Source: a virus (taxonomy: Duplodnaviria; Caudoviricetes). From it: a stretch of 64,000 nucleotides of DNA. Below are positions 10,212-61,679 of this stretch, one piece after another (positions within the stretch are counted from its first letter, which is position 1; the number at the start of each line of letters is the position of its first letter). A program made the position numbers and the translations under genes. The notes beneath the pieces are model-generated. The model did no database searches and had not been told where the DNA came from. It saw only the letters and a program-made list of their open reading frames with translations. Location: the IMG/VR virus record IMGVR_UViG_3300022666_000111, one strand, 5' to 3'.

Positions 10212-10904
10212 CTAGAAAAGGTCTTCGTCCATGAGCTTGTCGTAAGCGGTGTGGACGGGGTCGGCGGTCATCCGCGTTGGGGCGACGATCGCGTAGTTCC
10301 AATCGTTGTACAATTCGGGGAGGGCGACCTGGATGAATTCGGGCTCGTTATGAGGGTACGGGCTTCGGGGGAGCCCGAGCGTAACCACGGGGATACGGGC
10401 CATCCTTCCGGGGGCTTCTTCGATGGTGCTTAGGGATGCCACAATCCTGTAAGACTTGCGCATATCCGGGGGCGCCCAGATTTGACCCTCTTCGACGGTG
10501 TGGCAGAGCACGCATTCGTAGTAGAGGTGCTGCTCCTGCGGATCGTCGTAGGACGACGCGAGGTTGCGTCGTTGGAGGTTGTAGCCCTCCCCGTAATGCA
10601 CGCCGACGCCGATGCGGGGTTTCATGAGGTGGATGACGCCTTCGGAATCCCGAAGCCAGCATTCCTTCGTGATCGGCTTTCTGGGGTCAAAGCTAACGTG
10701 CCCCTCATAGACCCAGCCCCGGGCGCCTACGAGAATGAAGCCTCTCCGGAGGTCCGTATTCGAGACACGGACCTCGATGAGGTCACCAATAGGCTCGGGG
10801 CCGAGGATCTGTAGGGTAGCCTGGTCGACGGTGACGAAGTCGATGTCGTGCGACTTGTTTTGGTCGTAGATGTTGAGGATCCGGTGCCGGAGGGTCTTTC
10901 TCAC
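10212..10904 (-). CDS. hypothetical protein
   Basis: 230-aa ORF coupled to the CCA gene; ends TAYDKLMDEDLF. Confidence 0.65.
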   Translation of the reverse strand: MRKTLRHRILNIYDQNKSHDIDFVTVDQATLQILGPEPIGDLIEVRVSNTDLRRGFILVGARGWVYEGHVSFDPRKPITKECWLRDSEGVIHLMKPRIGVGVHYGEGYNLQRRNLASSYDDPQEQHLYYECVLCHTVEEGQIWAPPDMRKSYRIVASLSTIEEAPGRMARIPVVTLGLPRSPYPHNEPEFIQVALPELYNDWNYAIVAPTRMTADPVHTAYDKLMDEDLF

Positions 10905-12247
10905 GGGATCTCCTTGGCGAGGCGGAGGAGGGTTTCACGTTCGTTGAGGGAGGGGTCGTCGGTCACGGATTCGAGGAGTGCATTGAGGACGCGGCCGACG
11001 CGGGGGCCTGGGGCGATCCCGAGGGCCTCCATGACGTCGCGGCCGTTGATGACGAGGACCTTCGTGGAAGTTGGGATGGTCTCCGTCACGCTCATCCGTG
11101 CGACCCGATCGCGGAGGGCGTCGATGAGCGTCTCCTCCAGGGCGACCTTGGCGGGGCCTTTGCCGTCGATGTCTGCGTGGGCCAAGGTGCAGAAGTCGGG
11201 GACGTTGTCGAGCCCAACCTTGCGGACCCAGCGGCGGACGGCGGGGGCGCCGTGGTCAGCTTCGTAGCGGATGTAGTGGTGCCGCACGAAGTGAACGATC
11301 GCTTCCAAGTCTTCCGTGGCGAATCGCAGCCGGGTCAAGATCTCCCGCGTCATGTCAGCCCCTACGACCTCGTGGTTGTAGAAGGTTGCGTCTCCTGTCA
11401 CCGGGTGGGCCTCCTTCACGGCGGGCTTGCCGATGTCATGGAATAGGGCGGCGAAGCGCAGCAAGGGCTTCGTAGCCGGGACACGGTCAAGCGTAACCAA
11501 GGTGTGCTCCCACACGTCGAAGGCGTGGTACTTGTTCTGGGCGCACCCAAAGCTCGCCTTGAATTCCGGAATGAAGACCTCGAGCATCCCCGTCTCCGCC
11601 ATGACGCGGAAGGCGACCGAAGGCTTGACCGAGCCCTTCATGATCTTGAAGAGTTCGTCGTGGACGCGCTCGATCGAGACTTTCGAGAAGACTTCGAGGT
11701 TTGGGCGAATACCCTCGAGGGTCTCGGGTTCGATGCTGAAGCCCAGGGTTGCCGCGAATCGGGCGGCGCGCATGACGCGCAAGCCGTCCTCGTGGAACCT
11801 GCGGCGGGGGTCGCCTACGGCTCGGATGACTTTGTTTGCGATGTCGGCCATACCTCCGAAGGGGTCGACGGTTCGGTCGTCGATCGGGTCGTAGGCGATG
11901 GCGTTCATGGTGAAGTCGCGCCGGGCCAGGTCGTCTTCGATCCGGTCGAGGAAGCTCACAGCGTCGGGGCGTCGTCCGTCCGTGTAGTCCCCGTCCCCAC
12001 GGTACGTCGTCACCTCGAAACCGGTACCGTCCACGATGGCCGTCACGGTTCCATGTTGGATGCCGGTCAGGATGACACGGGGGAAAATGCGGAGCATGAC
12101 TTCTGGGCGGGCGTTGGTAGCGATGTCCCAGTCATGGGCTTCTCGGCCCATGATGAAGTCGCGGATAGCGCCACCGACCAGGAAGGCTTCGTAGCCCTCA
12201 CGGCGGAGGGTCTGGCAGATACGGAGTGCTTCGGGAGGGATTTGCAT
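10901..12247 (-). CDS. cca: CCA tRNA nucleotidyltransferase with HD domain
   Basis: LVGGAIRD, DWDIAT, DLARRDFTMNA, EDGLRVMRAARF, ALFHDIGK; ATG 33 nt after TTGATC. Confidence 0.93.
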   Translation of the reverse strand: MQIPPEALRICQTLRREGYEAFLVGGAIRDFIMGREAHDWDIATNARPEVMLRIFPRVILTGIQHGTVTAIVDGTGFEVTTYRGDGDYTDGRRPDAVSFLDRIEDDLARRDFTMNAIAYDPIDDRTVDPFGGMADIANKVIRAVGDPRRRFHEDGLRVMRAARFAATLGFSIEPETLEGIRPNLEVFSKVSIERVHDELFKIMKGSVKPSVAFRVMAETGMLEVFIPEFKASFGCAQNKYHAFDVWEHTLVTLDRVPATKPLLRFAALFHDIGKPAVKEAHPVTGDATFYNHEVVGADMTREILTRLRFATEDLEAIVHFVRHHYIRYEADHGAPAVRRWVRKVGLDNVPDFCTLAHADIDGKGPAKVALEETLIDALRDRVARMSVTETIPTSTKVLVINGRDVMEALGIAPGPRVGRVLNALLESVTDDPSLNERETLLRLAKEIP

Positions 12248-12276
12248 GGCTCTTGTATGCCGAGCCTCACGGGTGA

Positions 12277-12807
12277 TCAACCCCAATAAACGTAGAGGCC
12301 CTCTTGGAGGCTCGGGATGATCTCTGGTACACCGGCAAGGATGCAGAGGCCGACGACGCCGGGCGAGATTTGTCCGAGGGCGTAGGGATAGAGCCCGTGG
12401 GTGACCTTGTGAAAGCGGGGGCGCTGGCTGTGCCGTTCGGTCTCCTCAATCCAATCCAGCGTTGTGTCGTAGCGGAACCACGATTTGTACTCCAAGGGAT
12501 CGATGAAGAGGGTGAGCCGTTTGAGCCCGAATTCCGGATCGTGCATGACGCATTGGCTCATGCTGTGGAAGGCAGGCTTGTGCTCGGCGGCAATCGCGAT
12601 GTAGAGACTCACGTTGGAAAGCGGTGACTCCCGGGAGTAGCGTGTATCCTTGGGCGCTGGGGTAGCGGCGGCCACGGCGTCCTTGTTCTTCCGGAGCCAC
12701 TTGAGATACTTGGGAAAGTCCATGGCGTAGAGCATCTCCGAGGTCTCTTCGGAGATCTTAGCCTTTCGCGTAGCCCAGCCGATTGCCTTATGGACGCGGA
12801 TTCCCAT
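12277..12807 (-). CDS. hypothetical protein
   Basis: 176-aa ORF with GGAGGAG RBS. Confidence 0.65.
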   Translation of the reverse strand: MGIRVHKAIGWATRKAKISEETSEMLYAMDFPKYLKWLRKNKDAVAAATPAPKDTRYSRESPLSNVSLYIAIAAEHKPAFHSMSQCVMHDPEFGLKRLTLFIDPLEYKSWFRYDTTLDWIEETERHSQRPRFHKVTHGLYPYALGQISPGVVGLCILAGVPEIIPSLQEGLYVYWG

Positions 12808-28956: not shown

Positions 28957-30540
28957 ATGGCAAGCAAGATTCTGTTCCCAGGGGCGAAGCCGTCTGTTCA
29001 GGCGGCGGACACGGTCAACGAGGCGGGTGGGGCGGCGTACCAGATGACGCCAAAGATGGCCCTGGCTCAATTGGCGGTGACGGGGTGCCTGTCCAATACG
29101 TACTACGTGTCGGACAAGATGCAGCTCGAGGCCGTCTTGAACGCAGCCGTCGCGTGCGATCCGGAGTACGTTGCGAAGGTGGCGCTCTACGCACACGAGA
29201 AGGGCTTCATGAAGGACATGCCTGCGGTTCTTGCGGCCTACCTGGCTGCGATGAATGGGGCGCTCCTCGAGCCCATCTTCCCGCGTGTCATCAACAACGG
29301 CAAGATGCTCCGCAACTTCGTCCAGGTCATCCGGTCTGGCGCGTTGGGGCGCAAGAGCTTCGGAACGCGTCCGAAGAGGATGATCCAGAGCTGGTTCGAG
29401 AGCCGTAAGGACGGCGTGGTCTTCACGAACTCCACGGGTAACGATCCGTCGATGGCGGACGTTATCAAGCTCATCCGGCCGGTTCCGGGGACGGTGGAGC
29501 GTTCGGCGCTCTATGCCTACCTGCTTGGGAAGGACAAGTTCAAGTTCCAGGGGCAGGAGCTGGTGACGTCGGAGCATGTTCCGGAAGAGGTCAAGAGCTT
29601 CCTGGCATTCAAGGCGGACCCGGCCAAGGTTGCTGTCCCGGAGAAGGGTGTCCCCTTCGAGATGCTCGTCGGTGTTGAGGGCATCACGGAGAAGGGCTGG
29701 AAGCAGCTTGCGGAGAGGGCTACGTGGACGCAGCTCCGTATGAACCTCAACACGTTCCTGCGTCACGGGGTCTTCTCGGACAAGAGGCTCACCAAGAAGC
29801 TGGCCGACAAGCTCGGATCGGCGGAAGAGGTTGCGAAGGCACACTGCTTCCCCTACCAGCTCCTGGCGGCCTACAAGAACGTGGGTACGGAGATGCCCAC
29901 GGAGATCACCCTGGCGTTGCAGGACGCCTTGGAGGCTGCTACCAAGAACATCCCGGTGTTCGCGGGTTCGGTCGTGATTTGCCCGGACGTTTCGGGCTCC
30001 ATGTCAGCCTACGTCACGGGACGTCAGGGCAGCAAGACGCCTTCGAAGGTCACCTGCATTGACGTTGCAGCCTTGGTTGCAGCGAGCGTCTTGAGGACCA
30101 ACCAGACTGCGAGGGTCATCCCCTTCGAGCAGAGCGTGGTTGGCGTCAAGGTCAATCCTCGCGATTCGGTCATGACGAACGCGCAGAAGCTTTCGTCCAT
30201 CGGCGGAGGCGGGACCAACTGCTCGGCGCCCCTGGCCTTGCTCAACAAGGAGAACGCCGCGCCGGATGTGGTCATCTTCATCTCGGACTACGAGTCATGG
30301 GTTGATCGTGAGTACGGGCACGGTACTGGGATGCTCACGGAGTGGCAGCAGATCGTCAAGCGTAACCCCAAGGCCAAGCTGATCTGCATCGACGTGACGC
30401 CTTCGTCCACGCACCAGGTCCCAAGTCGTCCTGGGATCCTTCAGGTCGGCGGGTTCTCGGACGAGGTCTTCAACGTCATCGGGGCCTTCGTCTCCGGCGA
30501 CGCCTCGAGTTGGGTTGCCTCGATCGAATCCTACAAATAG
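28957..30540 (+). CDS. Ro60/Rsr TROVE-vWA RNA-binding protein
   Basis: NEAGGAAY, LAQLAVTGC, MKDMPA, MLRNFVQ, LRMNLNTFLRHG, FPYQL, vWA DVSGSM, GGGTNC, SDYESW. Confidence 0.93.
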   Translation: MASKILFPGAKPSVQAADTVNEAGGAAYQMTPKMALAQLAVTGCLSNTYYVSDKMQLEAVLNAAVACDPEYVAKVALYAHEKGFMKDMPAVLAAYLAAMNGALLEPIFPRVINNGKMLRNFVQVIRSGALGRKSFGTRPKRMIQSWFESRKDGVVFTNSTGNDPSMADVIKLIRPVPGTVERSALYAYLLGKDKFKFQGQELVTSEHVPEEVKSFLAFKADPAKVAVPEKGVPFEMLVGVEGITEKGWKQLAERATWTQLRMNLNTFLRHGVFSDKRLTKKLADKLGSAEEVAKAHCFPYQLLAAYKNVGTEMPTEITLALQDALEAATKNIPVFAGSVVICPDVSGSMSAYVTGRQGSKTPSKVTCIDVAALVAASVLRTNQTARVIPFEQSVVGVKVNPRDSVMTNAQKLSSIGGGGTNCSAPLALLNKENAAPDVVIFISDYESWVDREYGHGTGMLTEWQQIVKRNPKAKLICIDVTPSSTHQVPSRPGILQVGGFSDEVFNVIGAFVSGDASSWVASIESYK

Positions 30541-30956: not shown

Positions 30957-31214
30957 ATGGCGACGGTCTACAAGATCCGGGACAAGGCAACGGGGCTTTT
31001 CTCAACGGGAGGCTACAACCCAACCTTCGAGAAGAAGGGCAAGGAGTGGAAGGCGTTACAGCACGTCCGTAGCCACCTGACGCAGCTATCGGCTAGCTGG
31101 ATCGGCCCCAAGAAAGCCATCCCGCCCTCTTGGGAGATCGTGGAGTACGAGGTCGTCAAGACGGAAGTAGGGGTCCTCCCCGCTCTGCCCTACCGGAAAG
31201 AGAGAACGCGATGA
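30957..31214 (+). CDS. hypothetical protein
   Basis: 85-aa ORF with GAGGT RBS. Confidence 0.65.
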   Translation: MATVYKIRDKATGLFSTGGYNPTFEKKGKEWKALQHVRSHLTQLSASWIGPKKAIPPSWEIVEYEVVKTEVGVLPALPYRKERTR

Positions 31215-32308
31215 CATTCGAATGGAACATGCCTCCAGGGGCGCTCCCCTGGGTGAAAGACCGGACCTTCTACCTTACGCGCCACGGATCGCACGCCTAT
31301 GGCACGAACCTCCCGACATCCGATATGGACATCCGGGGGATCTGCATCGCGCCCAAGGAGTACTACCTCGGCTACGACCTTCACTTCGATCAGACGTCGT
31401 CGGCGACAACCTCTGACGACGTGGCCCCGGACTTCGTCATCTTCGAGCTTCGCAAGTTCATGAAGCTCGCGGCGGTTTGCAATCCGAACGCCTTGGAGAT
31501 CATCTTCACGGATCCTTCGGATCACCTGTTCGTGACGGCGACATCGAAGCGGCTTTTTGAATGCCGCGACATGTTCCTCTCGCGTTTGGCCTTGAGAACG
31601 TTCTCGGGGTATGCCGCGTCGCAGATGCGGCGGATTGAGGGGCACTACCGATGGCTCAAGAATCCTCCAACCAAGAAGCCGGAGCGATCGGACTTTGAAT
31701 TGCCGCCCCAACCGGAGATCCCAACGGAGCAATTGGAGGCCGTCAACGCCGGGATCCAGAAGAAGCTCGACCAATGGAACATGAATTTCCTCCAAGACCT
31801 TGAGCCCGCCTACCGGATCGAGATCAAGGAGGCCATGTTCGAGATGCTCACCGAGATGCAGATCCACATGGACGACTTGTGGAAGGGCGCGGCGAGGTCC
31901 TTCGGTTTCGACGAGAACTTCATCGAGTATCTCAAGCGGGAGCGTCAATTCACGGCGAAGGCCCGGGAGTGGAAGAAGTATCAGAAGTGGCTCAAGGAGC
32001 GAAACCCTGCGCGGGCCGCCTTGGAGGCAAAGTGGGGCTACGATACGAAGCACGCCATGCACCTCATCCGGCTCTTGCGAATGTGCCGGGAGATCCTAAC
32101 GGAGGGCGTCTTGCGGGTACGGCGCCCAGACGCGGCCGAGCTTCTTGAGGTGCGTAACGGCGCCTGGAGCTACGAGAGCCTCGTTGCTTGGGCAAACCAG
32201 CAAAACTACGAGCTTGCCCAGATCGTTCTAACCAGCCCTCTTCCCGCAAGGCCGGACAACCGTGCTCTTGACTCCCTCTGCATTGAGCTTGTCTCTTCGG
32301 CCCTTTAG
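31211..32308 (+). CDS. Pol-beta superfamily nucleotidyltransferase (RlaP-like, RNA repair)
   Basis: GSHAYGTNLPTSDMDIRG, NPNALE, GYDTKHAMHLIRLL. Confidence 0.88.
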   Translation: MTFEWNMPPGALPWVKDRTFYLTRHGSHAYGTNLPTSDMDIRGICIAPKEYYLGYDLHFDQTSSATTSDDVAPDFVIFELRKFMKLAAVCNPNALEIIFTDPSDHLFVTATSKRLFECRDMFLSRLALRTFSGYAASQMRRIEGHYRWLKNPPTKKPERSDFELPPQPEIPTEQLEAVNAGIQKKLDQWNMNFLQDLEPAYRIEIKEAMFEMLTEMQIHMDDLWKGAARSFGFDENFIEYLKRERQFTAKAREWKKYQKWLKERNPARAALEAKWGYDTKHAMHLIRLLRMCREILTEGVLRVRRPDAAELLEVRNGAWSYESLVAWANQQNYELAQIVLTSPLPARPDNRALDSLCIELVSSAL

Positions 32309-54215: not shown

Positions 54216-54288
54216 GCTGATGATGCTCGTAAGGACGAGCGCCGCATTCGTAAAGCGGACCAAGCGGGTTCGATTCCCGCCATCAGCT
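54216..54288 (+). tRNA. tRNA-Thr(CGU)
   Basis: cloverleaf; loop TTCGTAA. Confidence 0.85.
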
Positions 54289-54290
54289 CC

Positions 54291-54392
54291 GGTCGAATGA
54301 CCCTCGGGATTACACTATCCAAACCAGGCACGGGGGTTTAGTCACCCTCAAGCGGTGAAAATCCGCGCCAATCTCGGGACATCTTGTCGACC
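54291..54392 (+). ncRNA. Y-RNA-like element Y1
   Basis: GGTCGA-ATG...GGGATTACAC...AATCTCGGG...CTTG-TCGACC. Confidence 0.75.
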
Positions 54393-54396
54393 CTAC

Positions 54397-54468
54397 GGCC
54401 TTGTCTGCTAACGGTAGGCAACTAGGTTCTCACCCTAGAAATGCCGGGTTCAACTCCCGCCAAGGTCA
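54397..54468 (+). tRNA. tRNA-Glu(CUC)
   Basis: cloverleaf; loop TTCTCAC. Confidence 0.8.
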
Positions 54469-54470
54469 CC

Positions 54471-54543
54471 GACGCCGAATGCAGGTAGGAGTACATTCGA
54501 TTCGTACTCGACAAACCCTCTTACCGTCCCACTTGACGGCGTC
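54471..54543 (+). ncRNA. Y-RNA-like element Y2 (anticodon stem-loop cargo)
   Basis: GACGCCG-AATG...GGAGTACAT-TCGA[TTCGTAC]TCGA...CTTGA-CGGCGTC. Confidence 0.75.
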
Positions 54544-54548
54544 TATTT

Positions 54549-54619
54549 GGTTCTGTCGGCTAACAGTAAGCCATCCTCCCGGAGGGAGGGGAATGCAGGT
54601 TCATCTCCTGCCGGAGCCC
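54549..54619 (+). tRNA. atypical or pseudo tRNA
   Basis: cloverleaf with non-canonical anticodon loop CCGGAGG and T-loop TTCATCT. Confidence 0.45.
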
Positions 54620-54623
54620 CCAT

Positions 54624-54694
54624 GGTCCCATCGACTAGCGGTAGGTCACCACCCTTTCAAGGTGTGAACACGGGTTCGATTCCCGTTGGGATCG
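54624..54694 (+). tRNA. tRNA-Glu(UUC)
   Basis: cloverleaf; loop CTTTCAA. Confidence 0.9.
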
Positions 54695-54698
54695 CTAT

Positions 54699-54774
54699 GC
54701 CAGAGAAGCTCAAGCGGTAGAGCGACGGTCTGAAAAGCCGTGCGTAGTGGGTTCGACTCCCACCTCTGGCACCA
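54699..54774 (+). tRNA. tRNA-Phe(GAA)
   Basis: cloverleaf; loop CTGAAAA; encoded CCA. Confidence 0.9.
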
Positions 54775-54775
54775 A

Positions 54776-54915
54776 GTATCGAATGCGGTAGGGACTACAC
54801 GTCTCCCGCCACCCGCCCTTGAGGTCGCCTTCGAGGTCGGATGGGGAGATGCGTGAGCTACCCGGTTCCAACCCGGGCCAGCAGCGACATTGTCTTGGCC
54901 ACGTCTTGTCGATAC
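54776..54915 (+). ncRNA. Y-RNA-like element Y3
   Basis: GTATCGA-ATG...GGGACTACAC...GTCTT...CTTG-TCGATAC. Confidence 0.75.
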
Positions 54916-54919
54916 TCTT

Positions 54920-54991
54920 AGGTGCGTCATCCAACGGCTAGGATGCTGGTTTCCAACTCCAGTCATGAGGGTTCAAATCCTTCCGCGCCTG
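54920..54991 (+). tRNA. tRNA-Trp(CCA)
   Basis: cloverleaf; loop TTCCAAC. Confidence 0.75.
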
Positions 54992-54992
54992 C

Positions 54993-55144
54993 TGCGACGA
55001 ATGCTTGTGAGGATTACATTCCCTTCTAAGGACGTGGACCCTGTTCGAATCAGGGCTGGGGCACCAAGGCGCAAGCCTAGCAACATGCCTCGGAGGTGTA
55101 CTGGCTGCACACGAAAACAGTCTTCGCGCCTCTTTGTCGTCGCA
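54993..55144 (+). ncRNA. Y-RNA-like element Y4 (permuted tRNA-Arg(UCU) cargo)
   Basis: TGCGACGA-ATG...CTTCTAA, T-arm, CTGGGGC-ACCA, linker, GCCTCGG, D-arm...TTTG-TCGTCGCA. Confidence 0.8.
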
Positions 55145-55149
55145 ACAAC

Positions 55150-55377
55150 TTCACCGAATGCCTTGAGGGTCTACACTCAAATGAGGCCGGTTTCGTTCAA
55201 GAGCTGGTGCTATGTTGGTGGCACCGAGTCAACACGCAGTAGCTTTGACTCCCAGAGGGTGGGCTTAGAGGCAGCCATCCCTTAAAGAAAGCGTAGCAGC
55301 TCACTGGGATAGCCAGACGTGAAGGCCGCTCTTGGCCGGACTGGTTTAACACTGACTCTCGCACATTTGTCGGTGGA
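55150..55377 (+). ncRNA. Y-RNA-like element Y5 carrying a 23S rRNA L11-binding domain mimic
   Basis: TTCACCGA-ATG...GAGGGTC-TACAC...GACTCTC...TTTG-TCGGTGGA. Confidence 0.75.
55251..55308 (+). other. 58-nt mimic of 23S rRNA H43/H44 (nt 1051-1108)
   Basis: CCCAGAGGGTGGGCTTAGAGGCAGCCATCCCTTAAAGAAAGCGTAGCAGCTCACTGGG. Confidence 0.88.
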
Positions 55378-55411
55378 AAGGGCCAACCTCCCAACAAGGG
55401 CAGGCCCACAT

Positions 55412-55487
55412 CGGGGTGATGGCTTGTTGGTAAGCCGCCAGTTTTGGGTACTGGAACTTGGGGGTTCGACTCCCCCCATCCCGACCA
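55412..55487 (+). tRNA. tRNA-Pro(UGG)
   Basis: cloverleaf; loop TTTGGGT; encoded CCA. Confidence 0.85.
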
Positions 55488-55491
55488 TCAT

Positions 55492-55566
55492 CAGGGTGTG
55501 GCTCAGCCTGGCAAGAGCGCCACGTTGGGGACGTGGAGATCGGCGGTTCAAATCCGCCCATCCTGA
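55492..55566 (+). tRNA. tRNA-Pro(GGG)
   Basis: cloverleaf; loop TTGGGGA. Confidence 0.9.
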
Positions 55567-55628
55567 CTACGGTTGGTTCACCGACCACTTTCTCATTGAT
55601 CAGTCCTGGGACGCGGCATACTAGGATC

Positions 55629-56027
55629 ATGGAAAGCATCAAGACTACCGTAACCAACCTCACCAACGACCTCATCGCCAACGTATCCAAGGCGGACACC
55701 CGCGATTGGTACGAGGATAAGCCCTCTTGGGAAGAGATGATGTCCTTGCGCGACCGGCTCTACATTGAATCCGACTCGGTCGAAGCCACAAGAAAGTATC
55801 TCGAGGCATCCATAGTAAACCTTGAGGATCTCGACGGTATGGATCCCCTCGCGGATCTCTTGTGTCAAGCGCACGCCTTGGCCCCCTCCCTTGCGGATAT
55901 GGTTGTCACGATCAAGGCGACCCTGACGCTACTTGCGGCTGAAATCGACGCGATCGAAGACGCTATGGAGACCGTTCGCAAGGCTTACGCGCACCTTCCC
56001 GAGGGTGCAGGTTCCGATACCAACTAA
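55629..56027 (+). CDS. hypothetical protein
   Basis: ATG 33 nt after TTGATC (55596). Confidence 0.6.
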   Translation: MESIKTTVTNLTNDLIANVSKADTRDWYEDKPSWEEMMSLRDRLYIESDSVEATRKYLEASIVNLEDLDGMDPLADLLCQAHALAPSLADMVVTIKATLTLLAAEIDAIEDAMETVRKAYAHLPEGAGSDTN

Positions 56028-56055
56028 CGGTCAAATGGTGTAGATTCCCCTCACC

Positions 56056-56385
56056 ATGGGAATCTACACCAACGCCATCCGCGCTTTAAGGCGCGGCAAG
56101 ACCGTCGAAGTCGAAGTCACCAGCAGCAACCTCGCCCCCAGATTTCCCCAAGGAACCAAGCTGACTCTCTTCCCCCCGAAGGAGACGACGGTCTTCTCCG
56201 TTGGGGACGTCCTTCTCTACCGTGACGGTGACCGCGATAGGCTTCTCTTCGTGAAGGCCGTCTCGGTTGGACGGTTGAAGCTAGGCACCACCACGAAGAA
56301 CCTCGAGGGCTGGGCGGCGCGATCAAGTGTTTTGGGGTATGCGAATCTCGTCGTTCTAGACGGTGACGGTAGCAAGATCAAGTGA
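56056..56385 (+). CDS. S24/S26 peptidase-like fold protein, probably inactive
   Basis: VEVTSSNLAPRF...SVGDVLLY...EGW....VLG. Confidence 0.45.
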   Translation: MGIYTNAIRALRRGKTVEVEVTSSNLAPRFPQGTKLTLFPPKETTVFSVGDVLLYRDGDRDRLLFVKAVSVGRLKLGTTTKNLEGWAARSSVLGYANLVVLDGDGSKIK

Positions 56386-56634
56386 TCCCTTTGGGCCTTC
56401 GATGACGCCGTCCTCGTTGACGGGCCAACCCTTTTGAAGCGCAAGGCGAAGGATCTCGGTGAGGTCACCTCGCTTGGCGACCATCTTGTCGGCGATGTCC
56501 TTGGCTACGCCTCCGCTTACGCCGACGCCTCGGATGAGTTCCATGATTCGATTGCGCTTGGTCTCGGGCTTCTCCTTGTAGAGGGATGCCGCATAGCGCC
56601 GAGCGACTCGTTTTGCTATGGCATTCGTGTCCAT
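56356..56634 (-). CDS. hypothetical protein with N-terminal RVARRY motif
   Basis: 92-aa ORF. Confidence 0.6.
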   Translation of the reverse strand: MDTNAIAKRVARRYAASLYKEKPETKRNRIMELIRGVGVSGGVAKDIADKMVAKRGDLTEILRLALQKGWPVNEDGVIEGPKGSLDLATVTV

Positions 56635-56680
56635 GACATTTCCTGCCCATAAGGGCTTTCTCCTTCTAGATGAGGATCAG

Positions 56681-57190
56681 ATGAAAATCACCGGCTACAA
56701 GCTCCGTGAGGCAATCAAGCAGCAAGAGCTGCTGCGGGACACAGCAGCCAGCATGTTCGATGACACCCTCAAGGTCTTCCCCGGGGAGACCAAGTCGGCT
56801 CCGCAGGACGTTGTCAAGGCGTTTCTTGTTGCCGAGACCAACGTAGCAAAGCTCCAGACCGCGCAGATGCGGTTCAACCTGGCCGTCAAGGTTGACATCC
56901 TCGGTGAGAAGATGAGCCTGGCCGAGGCGATCAAGCGGGTTGGCGGGCAAGGCCGCGTCGAGAAGATGTGGCGGTCAGCGGCGAACAGCAAGCGCAAGGA
57001 CCGCTACGGCTACGACGACGATGAGCTTGACCCCACCAAGGTGCGGTCGACCCTGACGATCACTCCGGATGCCGCCGTGAAGCTCGCCTCTTCGGCCGGT
57101 CGTGTTGCTGGCGCCTACCGGGCAGCCATCGCAACGGCCAACGCCCAAGAGGTTGACATTGAAGACGTGACCCCCGAGCTTTTCGAGTAA
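56681..57190 (+). CDS. hypothetical helical protein
   Basis: GAGGA RBS; KMSLAEAIK. Confidence 0.7.
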   Translation: MKITGYKLREAIKQQELLRDTAASMFDDTLKVFPGETKSAPQDVVKAFLVAETNVAKLQTAQMRFNLAVKVDILGEKMSLAEAIKRVGGQGRVEKMWRSAANSKRKDRYGYDDDELDPTKVRSTLTITPDAAVKLASSAGRVAGAYRAAIATANAQEVDIEDVTPELFE

Positions 57191-57434
57191 GGGGTCCAAG
57201 ACTTGGCGGGCTACCCCGCCGCACGGCTTGTCCGTGAAAGAGGCTCCGGCCTCGGTAGCACGATCAGGGTGCATAACCAATTAGGCTAGAGATAGCCTGG
57301 AACGACATTACAACGATGACGATCCCCTACTTCTTCTCGGAAGCTCTTGGGTCGATTGCTTGGCGCCGGGGCGGAAACCTCGGGGGCAACGTTGTCGTAC
57401 AGTCACTCCTTGCTCCTGTTGCCCTGATCATCAT

Positions 57435-57519
57435 GCGGACGTGGCGTAACTAGGCAGCCGCGACAGGTTGAGGGCCTGTTGGGAGAAATCCCGTGGAGGT
57501 TCAATTCCTCTCGTCCGCA
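57435..57519 (+). tRNA. tRNA-Leu(GAG)
   Basis: class II cloverleaf; loop TTGAGGG. Confidence 0.9.
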
Positions 57520-57522
57520 CTA

Positions 57523-57585
57523 CCTCGAATGCTTGTTGGGAGTACATTTGCGAACATGACCCTCTCAACGAATCCCTTGTCGAGG
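57523..57585 (+). ncRNA. Y-RNA-like element Y6 (minimal)
   Basis: CCTCGA-ATG...GTTGGGAG-TACAT...CTCTCAAC...CTTG-TCGAGG. Confidence 0.75.
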
Positions 57586-57592
57586 CTAACTT

Positions 57593-57677
57593 GCGGTCGT
57601 GGCGTAATGGCAGCCGCGCCAGACTCAGGCTCTGGTGGGGTTAAAACCCCGTGGAGGTTCAATTCCTCTCGACCGCA
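57593..57677 (+). tRNA. tRNA-Leu(CAG)
   Basis: class II cloverleaf; loop CTCAGGC. Confidence 0.9.
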
Positions 57678-57682
57678 CTAGT

Positions 57683-57766
57683 GTACTGGTGGTGGAATGG
57701 TAGACACGCACCGTAGAAGGTGTGCCGCTTGCAACGGCTTTGGGGGTTCAACTCCCCTCCAGTATT
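57683..57766 (+). tRNA. tRNA-Leu(UAG)-like with shortened anticodon loop
   Basis: Leu-type D-arm and variable arm; GCACC-GTAGAA-GGTGT. Confidence 0.55.
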
Positions 57767-57773
57767 CAGAGAC

Positions 57774-57848
57774 CGGCCGGTCATCCAACGGTAAAGATAC
57801 GTGCCTGATAAGCACGGCATGGTGGTTCAACTCCACTCCGGCCGACCA
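57774..57848 (+). tRNA. tRNA-Ile(GAU)
   Basis: cloverleaf; loop CTGATAA; encoded CCA. Confidence 0.85.
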
Positions 57849-58004
57849 ATCGCAGATGAATGCAGGGACTACATTTGGAAAACCCGTGCCCTAACGGGCG
57901 GGCAGGTTCGAATCCTGTCGGATCGGCGCAAGCTGGTCCGTGGCGGAGCTGGCAGACGCGCGGGTGCCGCAAGGCATGCTGTCTCTCAAATCCCTTGCTG
58001 CGAT
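57849..58004 (+). ncRNA. Y-RNA-like element Y7 (permuted tRNA-Ser(GGA) cargo)
   Basis: ATCGCAG...GAATG...GGGACTACAT-TTGGAAA-ACCCG, variable arm, T-arm, capped acceptor, D-arm, CGGGT...CTTG-CTGCGAT. Confidence 0.85.
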
Positions 58005-58029
58005 TTTCCTTTGTTGGGACGCTTAGGGT

Positions 58030-58860
58030 ATGGCTTTCCCGAATGCGATCCCCGAGCGTGAGCAGTACATCCTCCAGCAGGTCCAAGCGGGTAACTTCGA
58101 AGCCCGATGGTCTTCGATCGTTTCAACCGCAGGGGACCACACGGCCGTCTTCATCGTCATGGCGGATGCCCTCAAGGTTGACGGCGTCCGGGTCAACGTT
58201 TCAGCCAGGCTGGAACAACAGATCGCGGACGTCCTCAACGCCTCGCTCTTGACGCCGAAGCTCGCCGACCTCATTTGGGCACAGCGCCTTGTCGACGTTG
58301 CCCCCAAGCCTCGAGCGATCACGTCCTCAACTCAAGCCATGCTGGCTCAAAGCCAAGCCTTGGACGCCGCCGTAGCGGGGCAGGACGGGCTTGTTTGCAC
58401 GGTAGGGAAGCATTGGGTCATTGACAAAGACCTCGCGGCTCATCCGGGCAAGGCGGAGAACTACGGCTGGCACTTCCACGGCTCGAGCTTTCAAGGGATC
58501 ACCGGAGAGGTTTGCGCCTCCCTCATGAAGGGTCCCAACGGCGCCTACGTCCGGCTCATCCAAGGACGCGGGTGGGCGCATGATATGAGCCACGTTGACT
58601 ACAGCCAGAATTGCGTGCTTGTCGCCAAGCAATGCTGGGTTGACGGCGCTTTGATGAACCTCTCGGACGTCTTGACCAACCCCGACCTTGCCGCCCTGGC
58701 AAGCCACAACGGGGTCACGACGATCCTTCGGCAGCCCGGGGTCGACACACTTGAATCCATCGAGTACGACCTCGTAGCCTTCCCCGAGGGCCTTGCGCTC
58801 TCGTCACCCCCTGACGGATTCCCGCAATGGGTTCTGGACCTTCTCGGCACTTCATGTTGA
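58030..58860 (+). CDS. hypothetical protein
   Basis: 276-aa ORF with GC3-rich codon usage. Confidence 0.75.
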   Translation: MAFPNAIPEREQYILQQVQAGNFEARWSSIVSTAGDHTAVFIVMADALKVDGVRVNVSARLEQQIADVLNASLLTPKLADLIWAQRLVDVAPKPRAITSSTQAMLAQSQALDAAVAGQDGLVCTVGKHWVIDKDLAAHPGKAENYGWHFHGSSFQGITGEVCASLMKGPNGAYVRLIQGRGWAHDMSHVDYSQNCVLVAKQCWVDGALMNLSDVLTNPDLAALASHNGVTTILRQPGVDTLESIEYDLVAFPEGLALSSPPDGFPQWVLDLLGTSC

Positions 58861-58894
58861 CCGTAGCCTAGTGGTAAGGCGCCTTGACTTTGAA
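58857..58894 (+). pseudogene. tRNA-Gln(UUG) 5' half
   Basis: TTGACCG acceptor strand, D-arm, CTTGA-CTTTGAA, then truncated. Confidence 0.7.
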
Positions 58895-58918
58895 CCATGC
58901 CCGTGCCACTCTTCGTTC

Positions 58919-59425
58919 ATGCATCAACGTTATACGCGGGCGCGTCTTGAAGAGGCTGTGGCTCAAAGCACTTGTTGGGCTGACGTTTGCAGGTACTTCG
59001 GTAGGGCACAATCCGGAGGATCCCGAAACCACATTCAGCGGCGTGTCCGTGAGGAGAACATCTCAACGTGCCATTTTGTTGGGGACGGGCGCGGAATGCA
59101 TTGGGCTAAAGGGGTAGCTCCGCCGAATCGTAAGGCAGCGAAAGACCTTTTGTGCCGTGACGTGGGAAGGAAACGCCCCCCACAAGCCCAACGGCTTCGA
59201 CGCGCCTTGACGGAGCTGGGTGTTCCCTATATCTGCTCGAAGTGCGGTAGCCCACCCATGTGGCAAGGTACCCCTTTACTGTTACAGATTGATCACCGAA
59301 ACGGTAACCGTACGGACAATCGTCCTGAAAATCTTCGGTTCATGTGCCCTAATTGTCATTCTCAAACGGACAACTGGGGCCGAAAAAGTACTTGTGGTGG
59401 CGGTAGCTCAAAGGAAGAGCTTTAG
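58919..59425 (+). CDS. HNH homing endonuclease
   Basis: LQIDHRNGNRTDNRPENLRFMCPNCHSQT; paralog of 25436..26119. Confidence 0.9.
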   Translation: MHQRYTRARLEEAVAQSTCWADVCRYFGRAQSGGSRNHIQRRVREENISTCHFVGDGRGMHWAKGVAPPNRKAAKDLLCRDVGRKRPPQAQRLRRALTELGVPYICSKCGSPPMWQGTPLLLQIDHRNGNRTDNRPENLRFMCPNCHSQTDNWGRKSTCGGGSSKEEL

Positions 59426-59467
59426 GTTGTGGCCCTAAAGATGGGAGTTCGATTCTCCTCCGTCACA
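59397..59467 (+). tRNA. tRNA-His(GUG)
   Basis: cloverleaf; loop TTGTGGC; overlaps the HNH 3' end. Confidence 0.8.
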
Positions 59468-59492
59468 CCGGGTTCGATTCCCGTCGGTCGAC
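59468..59492 (+). pseudogene. tRNA-Gln 3' fragment
   Basis: T-arm plus CGGTCGA, complementary to TTGACCG at 58857. Confidence 0.65.
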
Positions 59493-59525
59493 CCTATCGT
59501 TCTTCTTAAGCAATCCCTTCTGAAG

Positions 59526-59598
59526 GCCCTCGTAGTTCAGCGGACAGAACTCCCCTCTCCTAAAGGGGGTGCCAGAGGTTCGACTCCTCTCGAGGGCG
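59526..59598 (+). tRNA. tRNA-Arg(CCU)
   Basis: cloverleaf; loop CTCCTAA. Confidence 0.9.
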
Positions 59599-59641
59599 CC
59601 TAAAGCGCCTCACGGAGGTTCGAATCCTCCTGGGGGTGCCA
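59599..59641 (+). pseudogene. orphan tRNA 3' half (Arg-like)
   Basis: CCTAA...GGAGG-TTCGAAT-CCTCC-TGGGGGT-GCCA. Confidence 0.65.
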
Positions 59642-59659
59642 TCCGGTGTAGAGATACAT

Positions 59660-59899
59660 GCCCCTGCTGCCGGACGGAACCGGCGTCGGAAAACGGAACC
59701 GAAGGCTTAAACGCTATGGCATGACGAAAGTCGACAAGTAGGGTACGGTTGCGGATGCACCGAACAACGCCTCCCCTGGTAACAGGGTGGACCTAGCCGC
59801 AAATTGCCGTTGTAGGGAAGCGCGTTTACCAACCGAACGTCGAGCCCCTGGTAATGCTTGGGTTCATGACTTGTGCGGGTTCGACTCCCGCCAGGGGCG
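59660..59899 (+). ncRNA. 240-nt RNA with tRNA-like ends and a large internal domain
   Basis: GCCCCTG/CAGGGGC acceptor, D-like hairpin, perfect T-arm GCGGG-TTCGACT-CCCGC. Confidence 0.65.
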
Positions 59900-59921
59900 C
59901 TATCCGGTGTAGACGATCGGC

Positions 59922-60350
59922 ATGCCCATTTACTCAAACTTCGACTTGATGCTTCGAGACATGGTGGGCTACATCCGAACCACGGGGACGGAGATTCTTG
60001 CTTCGGACGATCCCAGGCGACAGCTTATCGGTTTCACCGCTTTGATTGGCGAATACCGATGGGAGATTCCGATGCACGCCATGATGGGGACAACGTCCTT
60101 GGACACCAGTGTGCTTCGAACTTCCGCTGGTCGGATGGCTTTGATTCACGCCTTGGCGGTTCAGGCGCGTGAGGGTGTAATACCTGATGCCTCTTACGTG
60201 AGCCCACATGAGCAGTTCCAACGAACGTGGAATGCTAACGCAGCTCCCCTTCAGCTTGACATTGACACCCCAGAGGAAGAGAAGCCCGCTGAGGAGTCTG
60301 GTCGGACGGCATTTGATAGGCTTCTCGACGACGATAACATGGAGCCATAG
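59922..60350 (+). CDS. hypothetical protein
   Basis: GGTGTAG motif upstream; ends TAFDRLLDDDNMEP. Confidence 0.65.
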   Translation: MPIYSNFDLMLRDMVGYIRTTGTEILASDDPRRQLIGFTALIGEYRWEIPMHAMMGTTSLDTSVLRTSAGRMALIHALAVQAREGVIPDASYVSPHEQFQRTWNANAAPLQLDIDTPEEEKPAEESGRTAFDRLLDDDNMEP

Positions 60351-60417
60351 GGGAGAGGCTGTCCCCGTCTGCCTGTCACGCAGAAGATCGCGGGTTCAAA
60401 TCCCGTTGGTTCCGCCA
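60341..60417 (+). tRNA. tRNA-Asp(GUC)
   Basis: cloverleaf; loop CTGTCAC; encoded CCA. Confidence 0.85.
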
Positions 60418-60551
60418 CGATGAATGCTGCTGGGATTACACTATCCACCCTGGATGTCGCGGGTTCAAGTCCCGTCGCTCGGCCTAGCCGGGTGTGGACC
60501 AGATGGTAGGTCGCCAGGCCAAAACGAATCTCTGCGCGTCTTGTCATCGTG
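60416..60551 (+). ncRNA. Y-RNA-like element Y8 (permuted tRNA cargo, UCC/Gly-like)
   Basis: CACGATGA-ATG...GGGATTACAC-TATCCAC-CCTGG, T-arm, CGCTCGG/CCGGGTG, D-arm, CCAGG...CTTG-TCATCGTG. Confidence 0.85.
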
Positions 60552-60556
60552 ACTAT

Positions 60557-60628
60557 AGAGGTGTACGCATCTGGTGAGGCGATCCGGCTGTCTACCGGAC
60601 GAGGCGGGTTCGATTCCCGTCACCTCTG
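60557..60628 (+). tRNA. tRNA-Asp(GUC)
   Basis: cloverleaf; loop CTGTCTA. Confidence 0.8.
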
Positions 60629-60630
60629 CC

Positions 60631-60765
60631 GACGAATGATCGGTGGACTACACTACCAAGGGGTTCCAACCCCGGCGCCTTGTGGGGGCAGATCCCACCG
60701 TGTTCTGCTTGCGGAGCACGACCGGCATTTAGAAGGGCGCCATACGTCTACCAACCCTTGTCGTC
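60631..60765 (+). ncRNA. Y-RNA-like element Y9
   Basis: GACGA-ATG...GGTGGAC-TACAC...GTCTACC...CTTG-TCGTC. Confidence 0.75.
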
Positions 60766-61656: not shown

Positions 61657-61679
61657 TCTCCTTGTAATTGCGTCTGGTT

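Follow-up and report, generated by a model that had tools for sequence, protein, structure and literature searches.

A giant phage with its own Ro60 carries nine Y RNA-like elements of differing interior among its tRNA genes

The stretch of DNA analysed here, referred to below as the window, comprises 64,000 nucleotides of IMG/VR record IMGVR_UViG_3300022666_000111 (Duplodnaviria; Caudoviricetes), a giant phage that encodes 28 tRNA genes and its own Ro60. Between its tRNA genes, from 54291 to 60765 on the plus strand, lie nine elements, Y1 to Y9, in which a common handle encloses an interior that varies from copy to copy. The elements and the genes relevant to them are as follows.

54291..54392, plus strand: Y1, handle and 55-nt interior forming a three-way junction with two hairpins of no recognised likeness
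54471..54543, plus strand: Y2, minimal and YrlB-like; the 21-nt interior is a 4-bp hairpin with a 7-nt loop
54775..54916, plus strand: Y3, handle, long imperfect hairpin and T-arm-like hairpin (5 bp, 7-nt loop)
54993..55144, plus strand: Y4, handle and permuted tRNA-like module
55150..55377, plus strand: Y5, handle and 177-nt interior holding a mimic of the GTPase-associated centre (GAC)
55242..55313, plus strand: GAC mimic of 23S rRNA inside Y5 (top of H42, H43 and H44; uL11 site), Rfam LSU_rRNA_bacteria
57523..57588, plus strand: Y6, minimal and YrlB-like; 14-nt interior
57849..58007, plus strand: Y7, handle within a complete circularly permuted tRNA-Ser(GGA)-like body
60416..60551, plus strand: Y8, canonical YrlA-type; permuted tRNA with a closed acceptor of the GGCCUAGCC type
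60631..60765, plus strand: Y9, handle (helix 1 of just 5 bp), small hairpin and three-way junction without recognised likeness
28957..30540, plus strand: Ro60/Rsr homologue, the presumed protein partner (Pfam vWA_Ro60, 1.3e-20)
31130..32308, plus strand: RlaP-family nucleotidyltransferase, two genes downstream of Ro60 (Pfam PF10127, 5.2e-19); context only
10901..12286, minus strand: CCA-adding tRNA nucleotidyltransferase with HD domain (Pfam PolyA_pol, 2.7e-36); context only

All nine elements possess two covarying helices and the unpaired letters GAAUG, UACAY and YUUG. The pattern GAATGN{5,14}TACAY matches ten times in the window, always on the plus strand, where shuffles lead one to expect 0.82 matches and none of 100 reaches ten; nine of the matches are the positions given in an earlier, sequence-only reading of this DNA. 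A full-scaffold detector, which requires GAATG, a second helix ending before TACAY, its complement, YTTG and the complement of helix 1, with at least 5 bp in each helix, recovers all nine, with 5-8 bp in helix 1, 6-10 bp in helix 2 and 14-177 nt of cargo, as well as one additional weak match at 977 (5+5 bp), while twenty shuffles of the window yield three full-scaffold matches in total. Among the nine copies, 52 of the 54 cells at helix 1 positions 1-6 are paired, with two to four pair types per position, and pairing at helix 2 positions 1-5 is complete (45/45 cells), a G-C pair and a G.U wobble being invariant. The claim of nine elements with a single architecture is thereby upheld, every helix sequence quoted in its support is present, and the covariation that it anticipated is strong. 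The description of the elements as Y RNA-like likewise stands, since the conserved letters of the handle are in all nine copies those of the Rfam YrlA consensus. A search with the YrlA model itself bears this out in part: Y8 aligns over positions 1-114 of 114 (35.8 bits, E 7.6e-5 in 12 kb), but none of the nine reaches an Rfam gathering score, the best values being that YrlA score of Y8, against a cut-off of 69, and a YrlB score of 22.9 bits for Y6, against a cut-off of 97. Y9 scores only 13.2 bits with YrlA.

Related short elements carry the same pairing. In an alignment of 33 of these from 22 sources (the window and 21 phage loci), 89.0% of cells are paired, versus 61.8% in shuffles and 33-51% with slid partners, double changes occur in 18 of 21 pairs and the covariation score is reached by none of 500 shuffles, though these statistics are inflated because the detector that chose the sequences demands pairing. 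The unpaired handle letters are kept in GC-rich and AT-rich phages alike. A covariance model built from the 33 elements, R1, whose training set includes Y2 and Y6 and excludes Y1, recovers four of the nine window elements. It finds the untrained Y1 (40.8 bits, E 7e-9), as well as Y2 (44.3 bits) and Y6 (52.8 bits) from its own training set, but it misses Y3, Y4, Y5, Y7 and Y9. The short interiors of 31 relatives are mostly A-rich and contain no conserved hairpin; the earlier suggestion that anticodon loops are displayed is weak, with single 7-nt loops as the only instances.

Placement with respect to the tRNA genes is precise. As had been read from the sequence, eight of the nine elements directly follow a tRNA, starting 0-3 nt past its 3' end, the exception being Y5, which starts 5 nt after Y4; in six of the nine the next tRNA begins 3-6 nt downstream. 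Y1 lies 3 nt downstream of a tRNA (54216-54288) for which there is an Rfam call only, and tRNA-Glu follows it 4 nt later. Sites resembling promoters or terminators are not enriched over shuffles. We propose that the Y RNAs and tRNAs would be transcribed as a single precursor, from which 3' processing of the upstream tRNA may release the 5' end of each Y RNA, and RNase P cleavage at the following tRNA would leave a 3' tail of 3-6 nt.

The interiors truly differ, comprising YrlA-type permuted tRNAs, a GAC copy, short loops and unassigned junctions. Fold z-scores are -3.06 for Y2, -3.12 for Y3, -2.53 for Y5, -2.76 for Y6 and -3.16 for Y9, with none of 200 shuffles folding as well as Y9; the interiors of Y1 and Y3 have no match in Rfam. 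As read from its sequence, the Y4 module is made up of a T-arm, an acceptor stem of 7 bp with ACCA encoded after its 3' strand, a hairpin cap and a D-arm; when Y4 is duplicated head-to-tail ARAGORN calls a tRNA over the junction at a lowered threshold only. In Y7, the body has a 7-bp acceptor under a GCAA-capped stem, a D-arm, a 5-bp anticodon stem, a long variable arm and a T-arm, with seven anticodon-loop letters retained beside UACAU; its duplicate is called as tRNA-Ser(gga), the handle being read as a 68-nt 'intron'. Duplicated Y8 also receives an ARAGORN tRNA call. The diversity of cargo that the sequence-only reading had emphasised is thus real, though its novelty does not extend to Y4, Y7 and Y8, whose tRNA-like interiors follow the published YrlA design, in which a circularly permuted tRNA has its acceptor stem closed (Chen 2014, PMC4201824; Wang 2018, bioRxiv 10.1101/312249). 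The CCA-adding enzyme of the phage, which further matches Pfam PolyA_pol_RNAbd, HD and tRNA_NucTran2_2, could complete tRNAs and tRNA-like Y modules whose genes do not encode CCA.

The interior of Y5 is of another kind. Its 72-nt core matches positions 1083-1154 of the LSU_rRNA_bacteria model at 62.1 bits, above the cut-off of 50 (E 5.8e-16), with every model pair standard, none flagged, and conserved loops that fit the consensus. Compared with the GAC of bacterial 23S rRNA (H42-H44), which binds uL11 and thiostrepton, the Y5 copy is detached from the remaining 23S rRNA and housed in a Y handle. At least 119 phage contigs contain a free-standing GAC-mimic RNA, for which we found no publication describing its occurrence in phage tRNA arrays. 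These RNAs resemble Y5 in their rRNA domain and their setting among phage tRNA genes, but they are closed by a long stem of their own and mostly carry an insert of approximately 90-110 nt between the H43 and H44 parts. Judged from its sequence, Y5 unites the Y RNA and GAC-mimic families.

The Ro60 gene had also been recognised in the sequence-only reading, and this assignment is supported. In addition to the vWA_Ro60 match, residues 19-515 of 527 align with D. radiodurans Rsr (PDB 2nvo, 9e-18), and the structures of phage phiLo Ro60 (9l5y and 9kop, approximately 3e-13) and Xenopus Ro60 are matched as well; the Pfam TROVE model gives no match at E<=0.001. RlaP, encoded nearby, is an RNA-repair-associated family. 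The array lies on the Ro60 strand, 24-30 kb downstream of the gene, and neither the motif search nor R1 found a handle near Ro60 in this phage, unlike most other sampled phages, in which Y-type RNAs adjoin the Ro60 gene. Other large phage contigs carry 2-12 handles each, and the array is not unique. The predicted co-occurrence of motif and Ro60 holds in samples that are small and hand-picked: a Ro60 homologue (42-52% identity) is present in 11 of 15 motif-bearing viral contigs (3/5, 3/5 and 5/5) and in all six that are at least 90% complete, and 13 of 13 phage Ro60 loci have two or more matches to the motif on the same strand as Ro60 and no more than 10 kb away, nine with a full scaffold and four with the motif and no full-scaffold call. 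Five large control phage genomes, four of them complete, have neither Ro60 nor the motif. Among loci retrieved by a strict 5' pattern, just 35 of 88 contain the full scaffold.

The elements have the YrlA-type handle and travel with Ro60 genes, and therefore the best overall explanation, which we consider probable, is that they are Yrl-type Y RNA genes, predicted partners of the phage Ro60 and proposed to serve as docking modules. By analogy with known Y RNAs, the handle would sit on the outside of the Ro60 ring, and each interior, serving as a docking site, may link Ro60 to a partner of its own. The tRNA-like modules might bind polynucleotide phosphorylase (PNPase) or tRNA-binding enzymes, as the Ro60-Y RNA-PNPase machine would suggest, uL11, or factors recognising this part of the ribosome, might bind the GAC module, and the short-loop forms may merely occupy or gate Ro60. 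Were this so, host RNA decay and quality control would be re-aimed during infection, and translation components would perhaps be titrated. No result distinguishes adaptors from decoys, either of which would be built on a Ro60 chassis.

A possible but distinctly less probable explanation, the leading one of the sequence-only reading, which had also suggested adaptors for RNA repair, is that the RNAs are pure decoys, with Ro60 only stabilising them and tethering no nuclease, and with interiors that would absorb host weapons directed at tRNAs or the GAC (anticodon nucleases, ribotoxins, tRNA-modifying toxins), or uL11 or stringent-response factors. The interiors do copy what such weapons attack (a tRNA-Ser-like body with anticodon-loop letters, and the GAC), 28 tRNA genes and a CCA-adding enzyme make for a heavy phage investment in tRNA maintenance, and a Ro60-like phage protein reportedly counteracts a defence system (PMC11482910). 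Moreover, five genomes with the free-standing GAC mimic have no Ro60, from which it follows that this module works without a Ro60-tethered nuclease. However, in a census of 87 elements, most of which have no tRNA body, 42 carry at most 25 nt of interior, without obvious target likeness, the aligned ones mostly A-rich, and a decoy library has no need of these. The conserved handle and strict linkage argue that Ro60 is central and more than a cap, and the analysis identified neither a defence gene nor a toxin target.

It is improbable that Y5 picked up its GAC piece from host 23S rRNA recently and carries it as a functionless passenger. Its enclosure in a Y handle is seen only in this window (0 of 119 GAC loci), 14 other array loci have no rRNA match, and H43 and H44 are contiguous as in real rRNA. 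Against recent capture, an exact 48-mer of the mimic is absent from 185,579 species genomes, and among 89 real 23S genes with the same core the nearest is identical at 60 of 72 positions, the helices remaining paired despite 12 differences, of which at least two are compensatory in our reading of the alignment. In addition, the match ends at the borders of an independently folding domain, one that phages have repeatedly kept as a separate RNA.

Very little probability attaches to the proposal that the handles are structured spacers independent of Ro60, acting as processing or folding signals for tRNA precursor cutting, with the Y likeness incidental. The exact placement between tRNAs, the lack of promoters and terminators of their own and the 24 kb separating array from Ro60 would be expected of spacers, but tRNA arrays of large phages do without handles: metagenome control loci, including arrays of 24-32 tRNA genes, contain one scaffold in 392 kb, and tRNA-rich phage DNA two weak scaffolds in 1.07 Mb. 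In other phages many copies adjoin Ro60 at a distance from tRNAs (only 28 of the 87 census elements abut a tRNA), and the unpaired letters that persist across phages of such different base composition are those of the YrlA consensus. That Y4, Y7 and Y8 are permuted genes maturing into working tRNAs, the handle just joining the ends, can scarcely be credited: all three have acceptor stems of 7 bp, ACCA is encoded in Y4, Y7 keeps an anticodon loop of Ser type together with a long variable arm, and M. smegmatis YrlA is reported to be cut by RNase P and given CCA (Chen 2014, PMC4201824), but 57-68 nt of handle would remain inserted at the anticodon stem, neither a splicing signal nor an endonuclease was seen, and most elements with the same handle have no tRNA body.

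The preferred reading, Y RNAs of the phage Ro60, places the elements closest to bacterial YrlA and YrlB (Rfam RF02553 and RF02565). Common to both are the terminal helix, the CGAAUG/CUUGUC internal loop and a helix 2 ending GGGAxCUAC; the permuted tRNA of YrlA, with T-arm, closed acceptor stem and D-arm, is matched by Y8, Y7 and Y4, the short forms of YrlB are resembled by Y2 and Y6, and YrlA/YrlB genomes have a Ro60/Rsr gene on the same strand, as here. Chen 2014 (PMC4201824) reported 355 Yrl candidates from 254 bacteria plus 22 phages, a tally limited to the 4 kb around Ro60 that leaves out matches overlapping tandem tRNA genes. One or two per genome are usually reported in the sources available, whereas there are nine here, 24-30 kb from Ro60 in a tRNA operon and below the Rfam cut-offs. 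In those accounts the published YrlA has no anticodon loop, in contrast to the distinct tRNA identities found here, such as the Ser-type with long variable arm and anticodon-loop letters, and one interior is an rRNA domain instead of tRNA-like. In the published literature we found neither this multiplicity, nor the tRNA-operon embedding, nor the folded GAC-mimic interior of Y5.

Metazoan Y RNAs are alike in their Ro60-bound terminal helix, conserved 5'-strand letters and variable, modular loop region, but they have other motif letters, their own RNA polymerase III genes and a La-bound 3' oligo-U tail, and to our knowledge they carry no tRNA or rRNA modules. Thermus phage phiLo (PDB 9KOP and 9L5Y) shares with the window a phage Ro60 and Y-like RNAs with a CGAA-containing internal loop. 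Its Ro60 is reported to bind two phage Yrl RNAs and host PNPase, complexes that were demonstrated there (PMC12135203). The two phiLo RNAs, Yrl1 and Yrl2, lie immediately upstream of the Ro60 gene, unlike the nine distant copies here, and the available text on phiLo reports neither tRNA-operon embedding nor an rRNA-like module (PMC12135203). The working model is the D. radiodurans Rsr-Yrn1-PNPase machine (RYPER), in which the handle is on Ro60, the tRNA-like module is on the partner enzyme and the RNA acts as both tether and gate, in line with the reported tethering of Rsr to PNPase by a Y RNA (Chen 2014, PMC4201824). RYPER has one main RNA and one known partner, whereas this phage has a putative set of RNAs with different modules and therefore, possibly, several partners.

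Phage tRNA genes cluster between 52.5 and 64 kb of the window, and nine Y-RNA-like elements (Y1-Y9) with different interiors are set among them:

54291-54392, plus strand, Y1, three-way junction
54471-54543, plus strand, Y2, minimal, YrlB-like
54775-54916, plus strand, Y3, long hairpin and T-arm-like hairpin
54993-55144, plus strand, Y4, T-arm, D-arm and 7-bp acceptor stem, then an encoded ACCA
55150-55377, plus strand, Y5, mimic of the 23S rRNA GTPase-associated centre (GAC)
57523-57588, plus strand, Y6, minimal, YrlB-like
57849-58007, plus strand, Y7, complete permuted tRNA-Ser(GGA)-like body
60416-60551, plus strand, Y8, canonical YrlA with a permuted tRNA
60631-60765, plus strand, Y9, three-way junction

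All nine share one handle, consisting of helix 1, GAAUG, helix 2, UACAY, the interior (or cargo), YUUG and the complements of the two helices. The pattern GAATGN{5,14}TACAY occurs 10 times in the window against 0.82 expected, a count reached in 0/100 shuffles; nine of these matches are Y1-Y9 and the tenth, at 39253, is without a fitting 3' half. A regular-expression detector that requires the entire architecture, with both helices of at least 5 bp, recovers 9/9 elements, in which helix 1 spans 5-8 bp, helix 2 6-10 bp and the interior 14-177 nt, and yields one marginal extra match in the window, at 977, and three matches in total in twenty shuffled windows. The sequence-only reading had proposed a common two-helix architecture in which pairing is kept despite differing helix sequences, with eight elements directly after a tRNA, and each of these proposals is borne out. 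Across the nine copies, 52/54 cells are paired at positions 1-6 of helix 1, with 2-4 pair types per position, as are 45/45 cells at positions 1-5 of helix 2, where a G-C pair and, after it, a G.U wobble are the same in every copy. By ARAGORN and Rfam a tRNA 3' end lies 0-3 nt before the start of 8/9 elements, the gap between Y4 and Y5 is 5 nt, and the next tRNA follows six of the nine after only 3-6 nt. Promoter-like and terminator-like sites were no more frequent in a scan of the array than in shuffles. The tRNA array continues to the end of the window, so further Y copies may exist outside it.

ARAGORN counts 28 tRNAs over the whole window; one more, which it misses, is called by Rfam (54216-54288, plus strand, 40.1 bits). 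Several other features of the tRNA complement deserve mention. A very stable element of about 100 nt (54107-54209, plus strand; -64.2 kcal/mol, z -7.45, with 0/200 shuffles folding as well), which is not a Y handle, separates a small ORF from the tRNA at 54216. The 74-nt 'tRNA-Ser(gga)' called by ARAGORN at 54549-54622 (plus strand) is absent from three Rfam scans. At 59600-59905 (plus strand), a T-arm, acceptor-like pieces and a repeated TCCGGTGTAGA motif flank about 250 nt, and Rfam gives only a weak tRNA match there (59806-59899, 20.7 bits). A tRNA at 26088-26179 (plus strand) carries the anticodon UUA, reading the UAA stop (ARAGORN 'tRNA-Stop'; Rfam tRNA, 53 bits), and overlaps the end of an HNH-like ORF at 25436-26119.

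The identity of the handle is best seen in Y8, which aligns to all 114 positions of the Rfam YrlA model, scoring 35.8 bits where the gathering score is 69 (E 7.6e-5, 12 kb searched). The YrlA consensus letters in this alignment, CGAAUGC, GGgaaCUAC and CUUGUCG, are those conserved in all nine copies, which identifies the scaffold, as far as sequence goes, as the Y-RNA-like handle of Chen et al. 2014. GAAUG, UACAY and YUUG each occur in 9/9 elements and CGAA in 6/9; the conserved 5' motif of YrlA and YrlB given in the part of Chen et al. used here (PMC4201824), GNCGAAN0-1G, is found exactly in four of the nine (Y1, Y2, Y4, Y9). Likeness to the Y RNA families in Rfam is thus partial: beside the full-length alignment of Y8, Y6 matches YrlB weakly (22.9 bits against a gathering score of 97) and Y9 matches YrlA weakly (13.2 bits), the other six have no YrlA or YrlB match at E<=5-10, and 0/9 reach the gathering cut-off, so that routine annotation would miss all nine. 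Known ribozymes, introns and retron RNAs were excluded as the identity of the elements, with no Rfam match to any of them. The tRNA-like domain of YrlA (a permuted arrangement of T-arm, closed acceptor stem and D-arm) is present in three elements here but absent in the other six.

Further support comes from covariation. Short elements, 33 in all, were aligned from 21 phage loci and the window. Pairing holds in 89.0% of their cells, compared with 61.8% after shuffling and 33-51% with partners slid, changes on both sides occur in 18/21 pairs, and the observed covariation score is matched by 0/500 shuffles; these numbers are inflated, since the elements were picked by a detector that demands pairing. 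The terminal helix joining the 5' and 3' ends of the elements is among the features that covariation supports. A model built from the 33 elements (R1) scores Y1, which lay outside its training set, at 40.8 bits (E 7e-9), an independent sign for the shared handle. R1 detects no other short handle anywhere in the window, the surroundings of the Ro60 gene included. It misses the five copies with long interiors, and because it is unable to bridge these, our census of handles was based on the regular-expression detector.

The window encodes the expected protein partner, together with other genes of RNA metabolism:

28957-30540, plus strand, Ro60 homologue (Pfam Ro60 vWA domain, 1.3e-20)
31130-32308, plus strand, RlaP-family nucleotidyltransferase, two genes downstream of Ro60 (Pfam scan)
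10901-12286, minus strand, CCA-adding enzyme with HD domain (Pfam scan)
60848-61342, plus strand, endonuclease V homologue within the tRNA region

The RlaP family takes its name from an RNA-repair context. The Ro60 assignment made from sequence alone is confirmed by the Pfam domain and by a match to D. radiodurans Rsr (2nvo) that covers residues 19-515 of 527 (9e-18); the ORF also matches the Ro60 of phage phiLo (9l5y, 9kop; about 3e-13), Xenopus RO60 and another RO60 structure. No RNA ligase, PNPase or ribosomal protein was found among the window ORFs scanned with Pfam. Two papain-like cysteine protease paralogues (Peptidase_C1) lie at 38988-39797 and 61668-62438, both on the plus strand, one of them among the tRNA genes. 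Chen et al. (PMC4201824, in the part used here) worked with an operational limit of 4 kb between a candidate and a same-strand Ro60 gene; the array is on the Ro60 strand but 24-30 kb downstream of the gene, and neither the pattern search nor R1 places a handle close to Ro60 in the window.

Linkage between handle and Ro60 nevertheless extends to other phages. A search of IMG/VR with a strict 5' pattern returned 88 loci, of which 35 hold at least one full scaffold; for the 53 without one, chance or a deviant copy is the probable cause. Counted against the 5' motifs, full scaffolds reach 9/9 (L074), 8/8 (L053), 6/11 (L037), 5/6 (L047) and 5/9 (L067), and two further loci with 3/4 (L008) and 3/3 (L071) lie on one contig. 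All 14 array loci scanned are rich in tRNA genes, and 0/14 show a YrlA or rRNA match at gathering score or an rRNA-like interior. With the Ro60 of the window as query, homologues at 42-52% identity were found in 11 of the 15 contigs behind handle loci (3/5, 3/5 and 5/5), including 6/6 contigs at least 90% complete; the four negative contigs are fragments, 6-52% complete. Conversely, 13/13 IMG/VR Ro60 loci, three of them near-duplicates, have two or more motif matches within 10 kb of Ro60 on its own strand, with full-scaffold calls at 9/13 and none at 4/13. Both Ro60 (0/5) and motif (0/5) are lacking from five large phage genomes, four complete, that contain tRNA arrays. The co-occurrence of motif and TROVE/Ro60 genes on which the sequence-only reading depended is therefore present, in samples that are small and chosen by us.

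The handle is not a general companion of tRNA genes, as 119 tRNA-rich phage loci (1.07 Mb) gave two marginal scaffolds. The 276-aa ORF of the array has no relative in IMG/VR, and its nearest homologues share 83% and 77% identity; the 54 metagenome loci with homologues of this ORF (392 kb, arrays of 24, 27 and 32 tRNAs included) hold one scaffold and, being nearly handle-free, served as a control and not as orthologues. BLAST of the array against named phages returned tRNA genes only. Other Ro60 phages carry from 2 to about 12 handles per contig, so nine is high but not unique. At or close to handles in three of the fetched loci, Rfam reports tRNA matches without acceptor ends, at L012:11520-11580 (minus strand, model positions 6-65), L048:4700-4762 (minus strand, model positions 5-66) and L049:4350-4410 (plus strand). 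These suggest unpermuted tRNA bodies with the handle in place of the acceptor stem, a topology that would differ from YrlA.

The interiors do differ as the sequence-only reading held, yet much of this diversity belongs to a known theme. A permuted tRNA with a closed acceptor stem is the YrlA design as set out in the sections of Chen 2014 (PMC4201824) and Wang 2018 (bioRxiv 10.1101/312249) drawn on here, the former describing for M. smegmatis YrlA seven acceptor pairs, cutting by RNase P and the adding of CCA, so Y4, Y7 and Y8 are variants of it. The acceptor of Y8 is the conserved closed one (Rfam alignment, ARAGORN). Y7 has a 7-bp acceptor stem, D-arm, 5-bp anticodon stem, long variable arm and T-arm, with the handle inserted just 5' of seven retained anticodon-loop letters, whereas the YrlA RNAs in those same sections are without such letters; all three also depart from published YrlA in tRNA identity. 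When the elements were duplicated, ARAGORN called Y7 and Y8 with its default settings but needed a lowered threshold for Y4. Rfam has no match for the interiors of Y1-Y4 or Y9, and for the three-way junctions of Y1 and Y9 no likeness was found by Rfam or folding. Among 87 non-redundant elements in our census, in which helices of at least 6 bp were required and Y9 was thereby left out, 42 have interiors of 25 nt or less, 12 hold permuted tRNAs, 10 only a T-arm-like hairpin and 21 something else, with 2 probable artefacts. Aligned short interiors are mostly A-rich and without a conserved hairpin, so we rate the display of anticodon loops by Y2 and Y6 as unproven. That candidate was downgraded: a 6/7 match of a 7-nt loop to one of 28 tRNA loops has a chance of about 4% per loop by our own estimate, before correction for multiple loops.

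Y5 stands apart. Positions 55242-55313 correspond to LSU_rRNA_bacteria positions 1083-1154 (the top of H42, H43 and H44, the uL11 site), at 62.1 bits (cut-off 50; E 5.8e-16), with no non-standard pair flagged and conserved loops identical to the consensus. In E. coli numbering, A1067, A1095 and the partners of known tertiary contacts are presumably kept. None of 185,579 species genomes contains an exact copy of a 48-mer of the mimic, and a 32-mer of Y5 is not found exactly in IMG/VR; the closest of 89 real 23S genes sharing a 46-nt degenerate core is identical at 60/72 positions, and by our reading of the alignment at least two of the differences alter both sides of a pair with pairing kept. 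Judged by these comparisons, the Y5 mimic does not appear to be a fresh copy of a host gene.

Related RNAs exist outside the Y context. The H43 core is found in at least 119 IMG/VR viral contigs (loci L160-L278, e.g., L160, L164, L165, L201, L203 and L216), and among the 120 H43-core matches listed none has downstream 23S marker motifs, so none is a real 23S gene. The GAC mimics listed are free-standing RNAs, often right after a tRNA, and where the H44 part can be recognised, about 90-110 nt separate it from the H43 part upstream, with an insert usual between them; no Rfam family reaches gathering score for them in the 15 loci scanned. Unlike these RNAs, which have their own closing stem and no Y handle (0/119 among the loci listed are enclosed by one), the Y5 mimic is contiguous and sits inside a handle. 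Y5 combines a handle with a mimic known as free-standing, so it is by its composition a chimera of two phage RNA families, the only such chimera within the sample examined. Five genomes with free-standing mimics contain no Ro60 (0/5), and a free-standing mimic occurs together with Ro60 and handles on one 433-kb contig. In L216 two GAC mimic copies lie 318 nt apart, and at L160:9376-9703 (minus strand) a large tRNA array with a GAC mimic includes a full RNase P RNA gene of bacterial type (263.7 bits).

How might such an array work? The Y RNAs would be co-transcribed with the tRNAs and freed by tRNA processing enzymes; the handle, as its genomic linkage suggests, would dock on Ro60, and the interior would serve as a partner-binding module. 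Alternatively, the interiors might soak up host weapons or factors, with Ro60 only stabilising them. This is a serious rival, above all for Y5, as a GAC mimic like that of Y5 works elsewhere without Ro60. We favour interiors that would couple Ro60 to partners, because such tethering has been shown for Y RNAs of D. radiodurans and S. Typhimurium and for phage phiLo (PMC12135203, in the part used here), and because half of all handles have interiors too small for any mimicry. A bolder and rather unlikely reading is that the phage Ro60 is a general chassis and the handle a universal tag, with particles bearing mimics of translation parts, namely whole tRNA bodies of chosen identity and the uL11-binding GAC of Y5, that capture host factors or deliver them to an exonuclease; candidate targets would then be tRNA-targeting defence nucleases, uL11, translational GTPases and stringent-response enzymes. 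If this were true, Y5 would for the first time physically join many-copy Y RNA arrays and GAC mimics, and would offer a way in to the ligand of the latter. Y5 also suggests, for the free-standing mimics themselves, a functional field shared with the Y RNA modules.

The usual picture is one or two Y RNAs per Ro60. Our full-text literature search found no many-copy Y RNA arrays in tRNA operons (phages with more than one YrlA candidate may be among those tabulated in the Chen 2014 supplement), and no rRNA-domain module on a Y handle or phage GAC mimic within main texts. In the part of Chen et al. used here (PMC4201824), Y RNAs are reported in 22 phages, a count limited to 4 kb around Ro60 from which overlaps with tandem tRNAs were removed, and the portion of the phiLo study drawn on describes two Y RNAs (PMC12135203). 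One paper, in the part used, speculates that some 'tRNA genes' beside the Ro60-like gene of phage Bas63 may be Y RNAs, another that three abundant transcripts upstream of the Rsr-like gene of Listeria phage CKA15 may be, and a survey of jumbo phages mentions TROVE proteins that have a tRNA-like partner. Set beside these systems, one phage with nine Y RNAs from a tRNA operon, and 2-12 handles in many large uncultured phages, point to a set of Ro60 RNAs much larger and more modular than described so far. Its most important member is the chimera Y5, which places a uL11-site mimic in the slot that normally holds a tRNA mimic.
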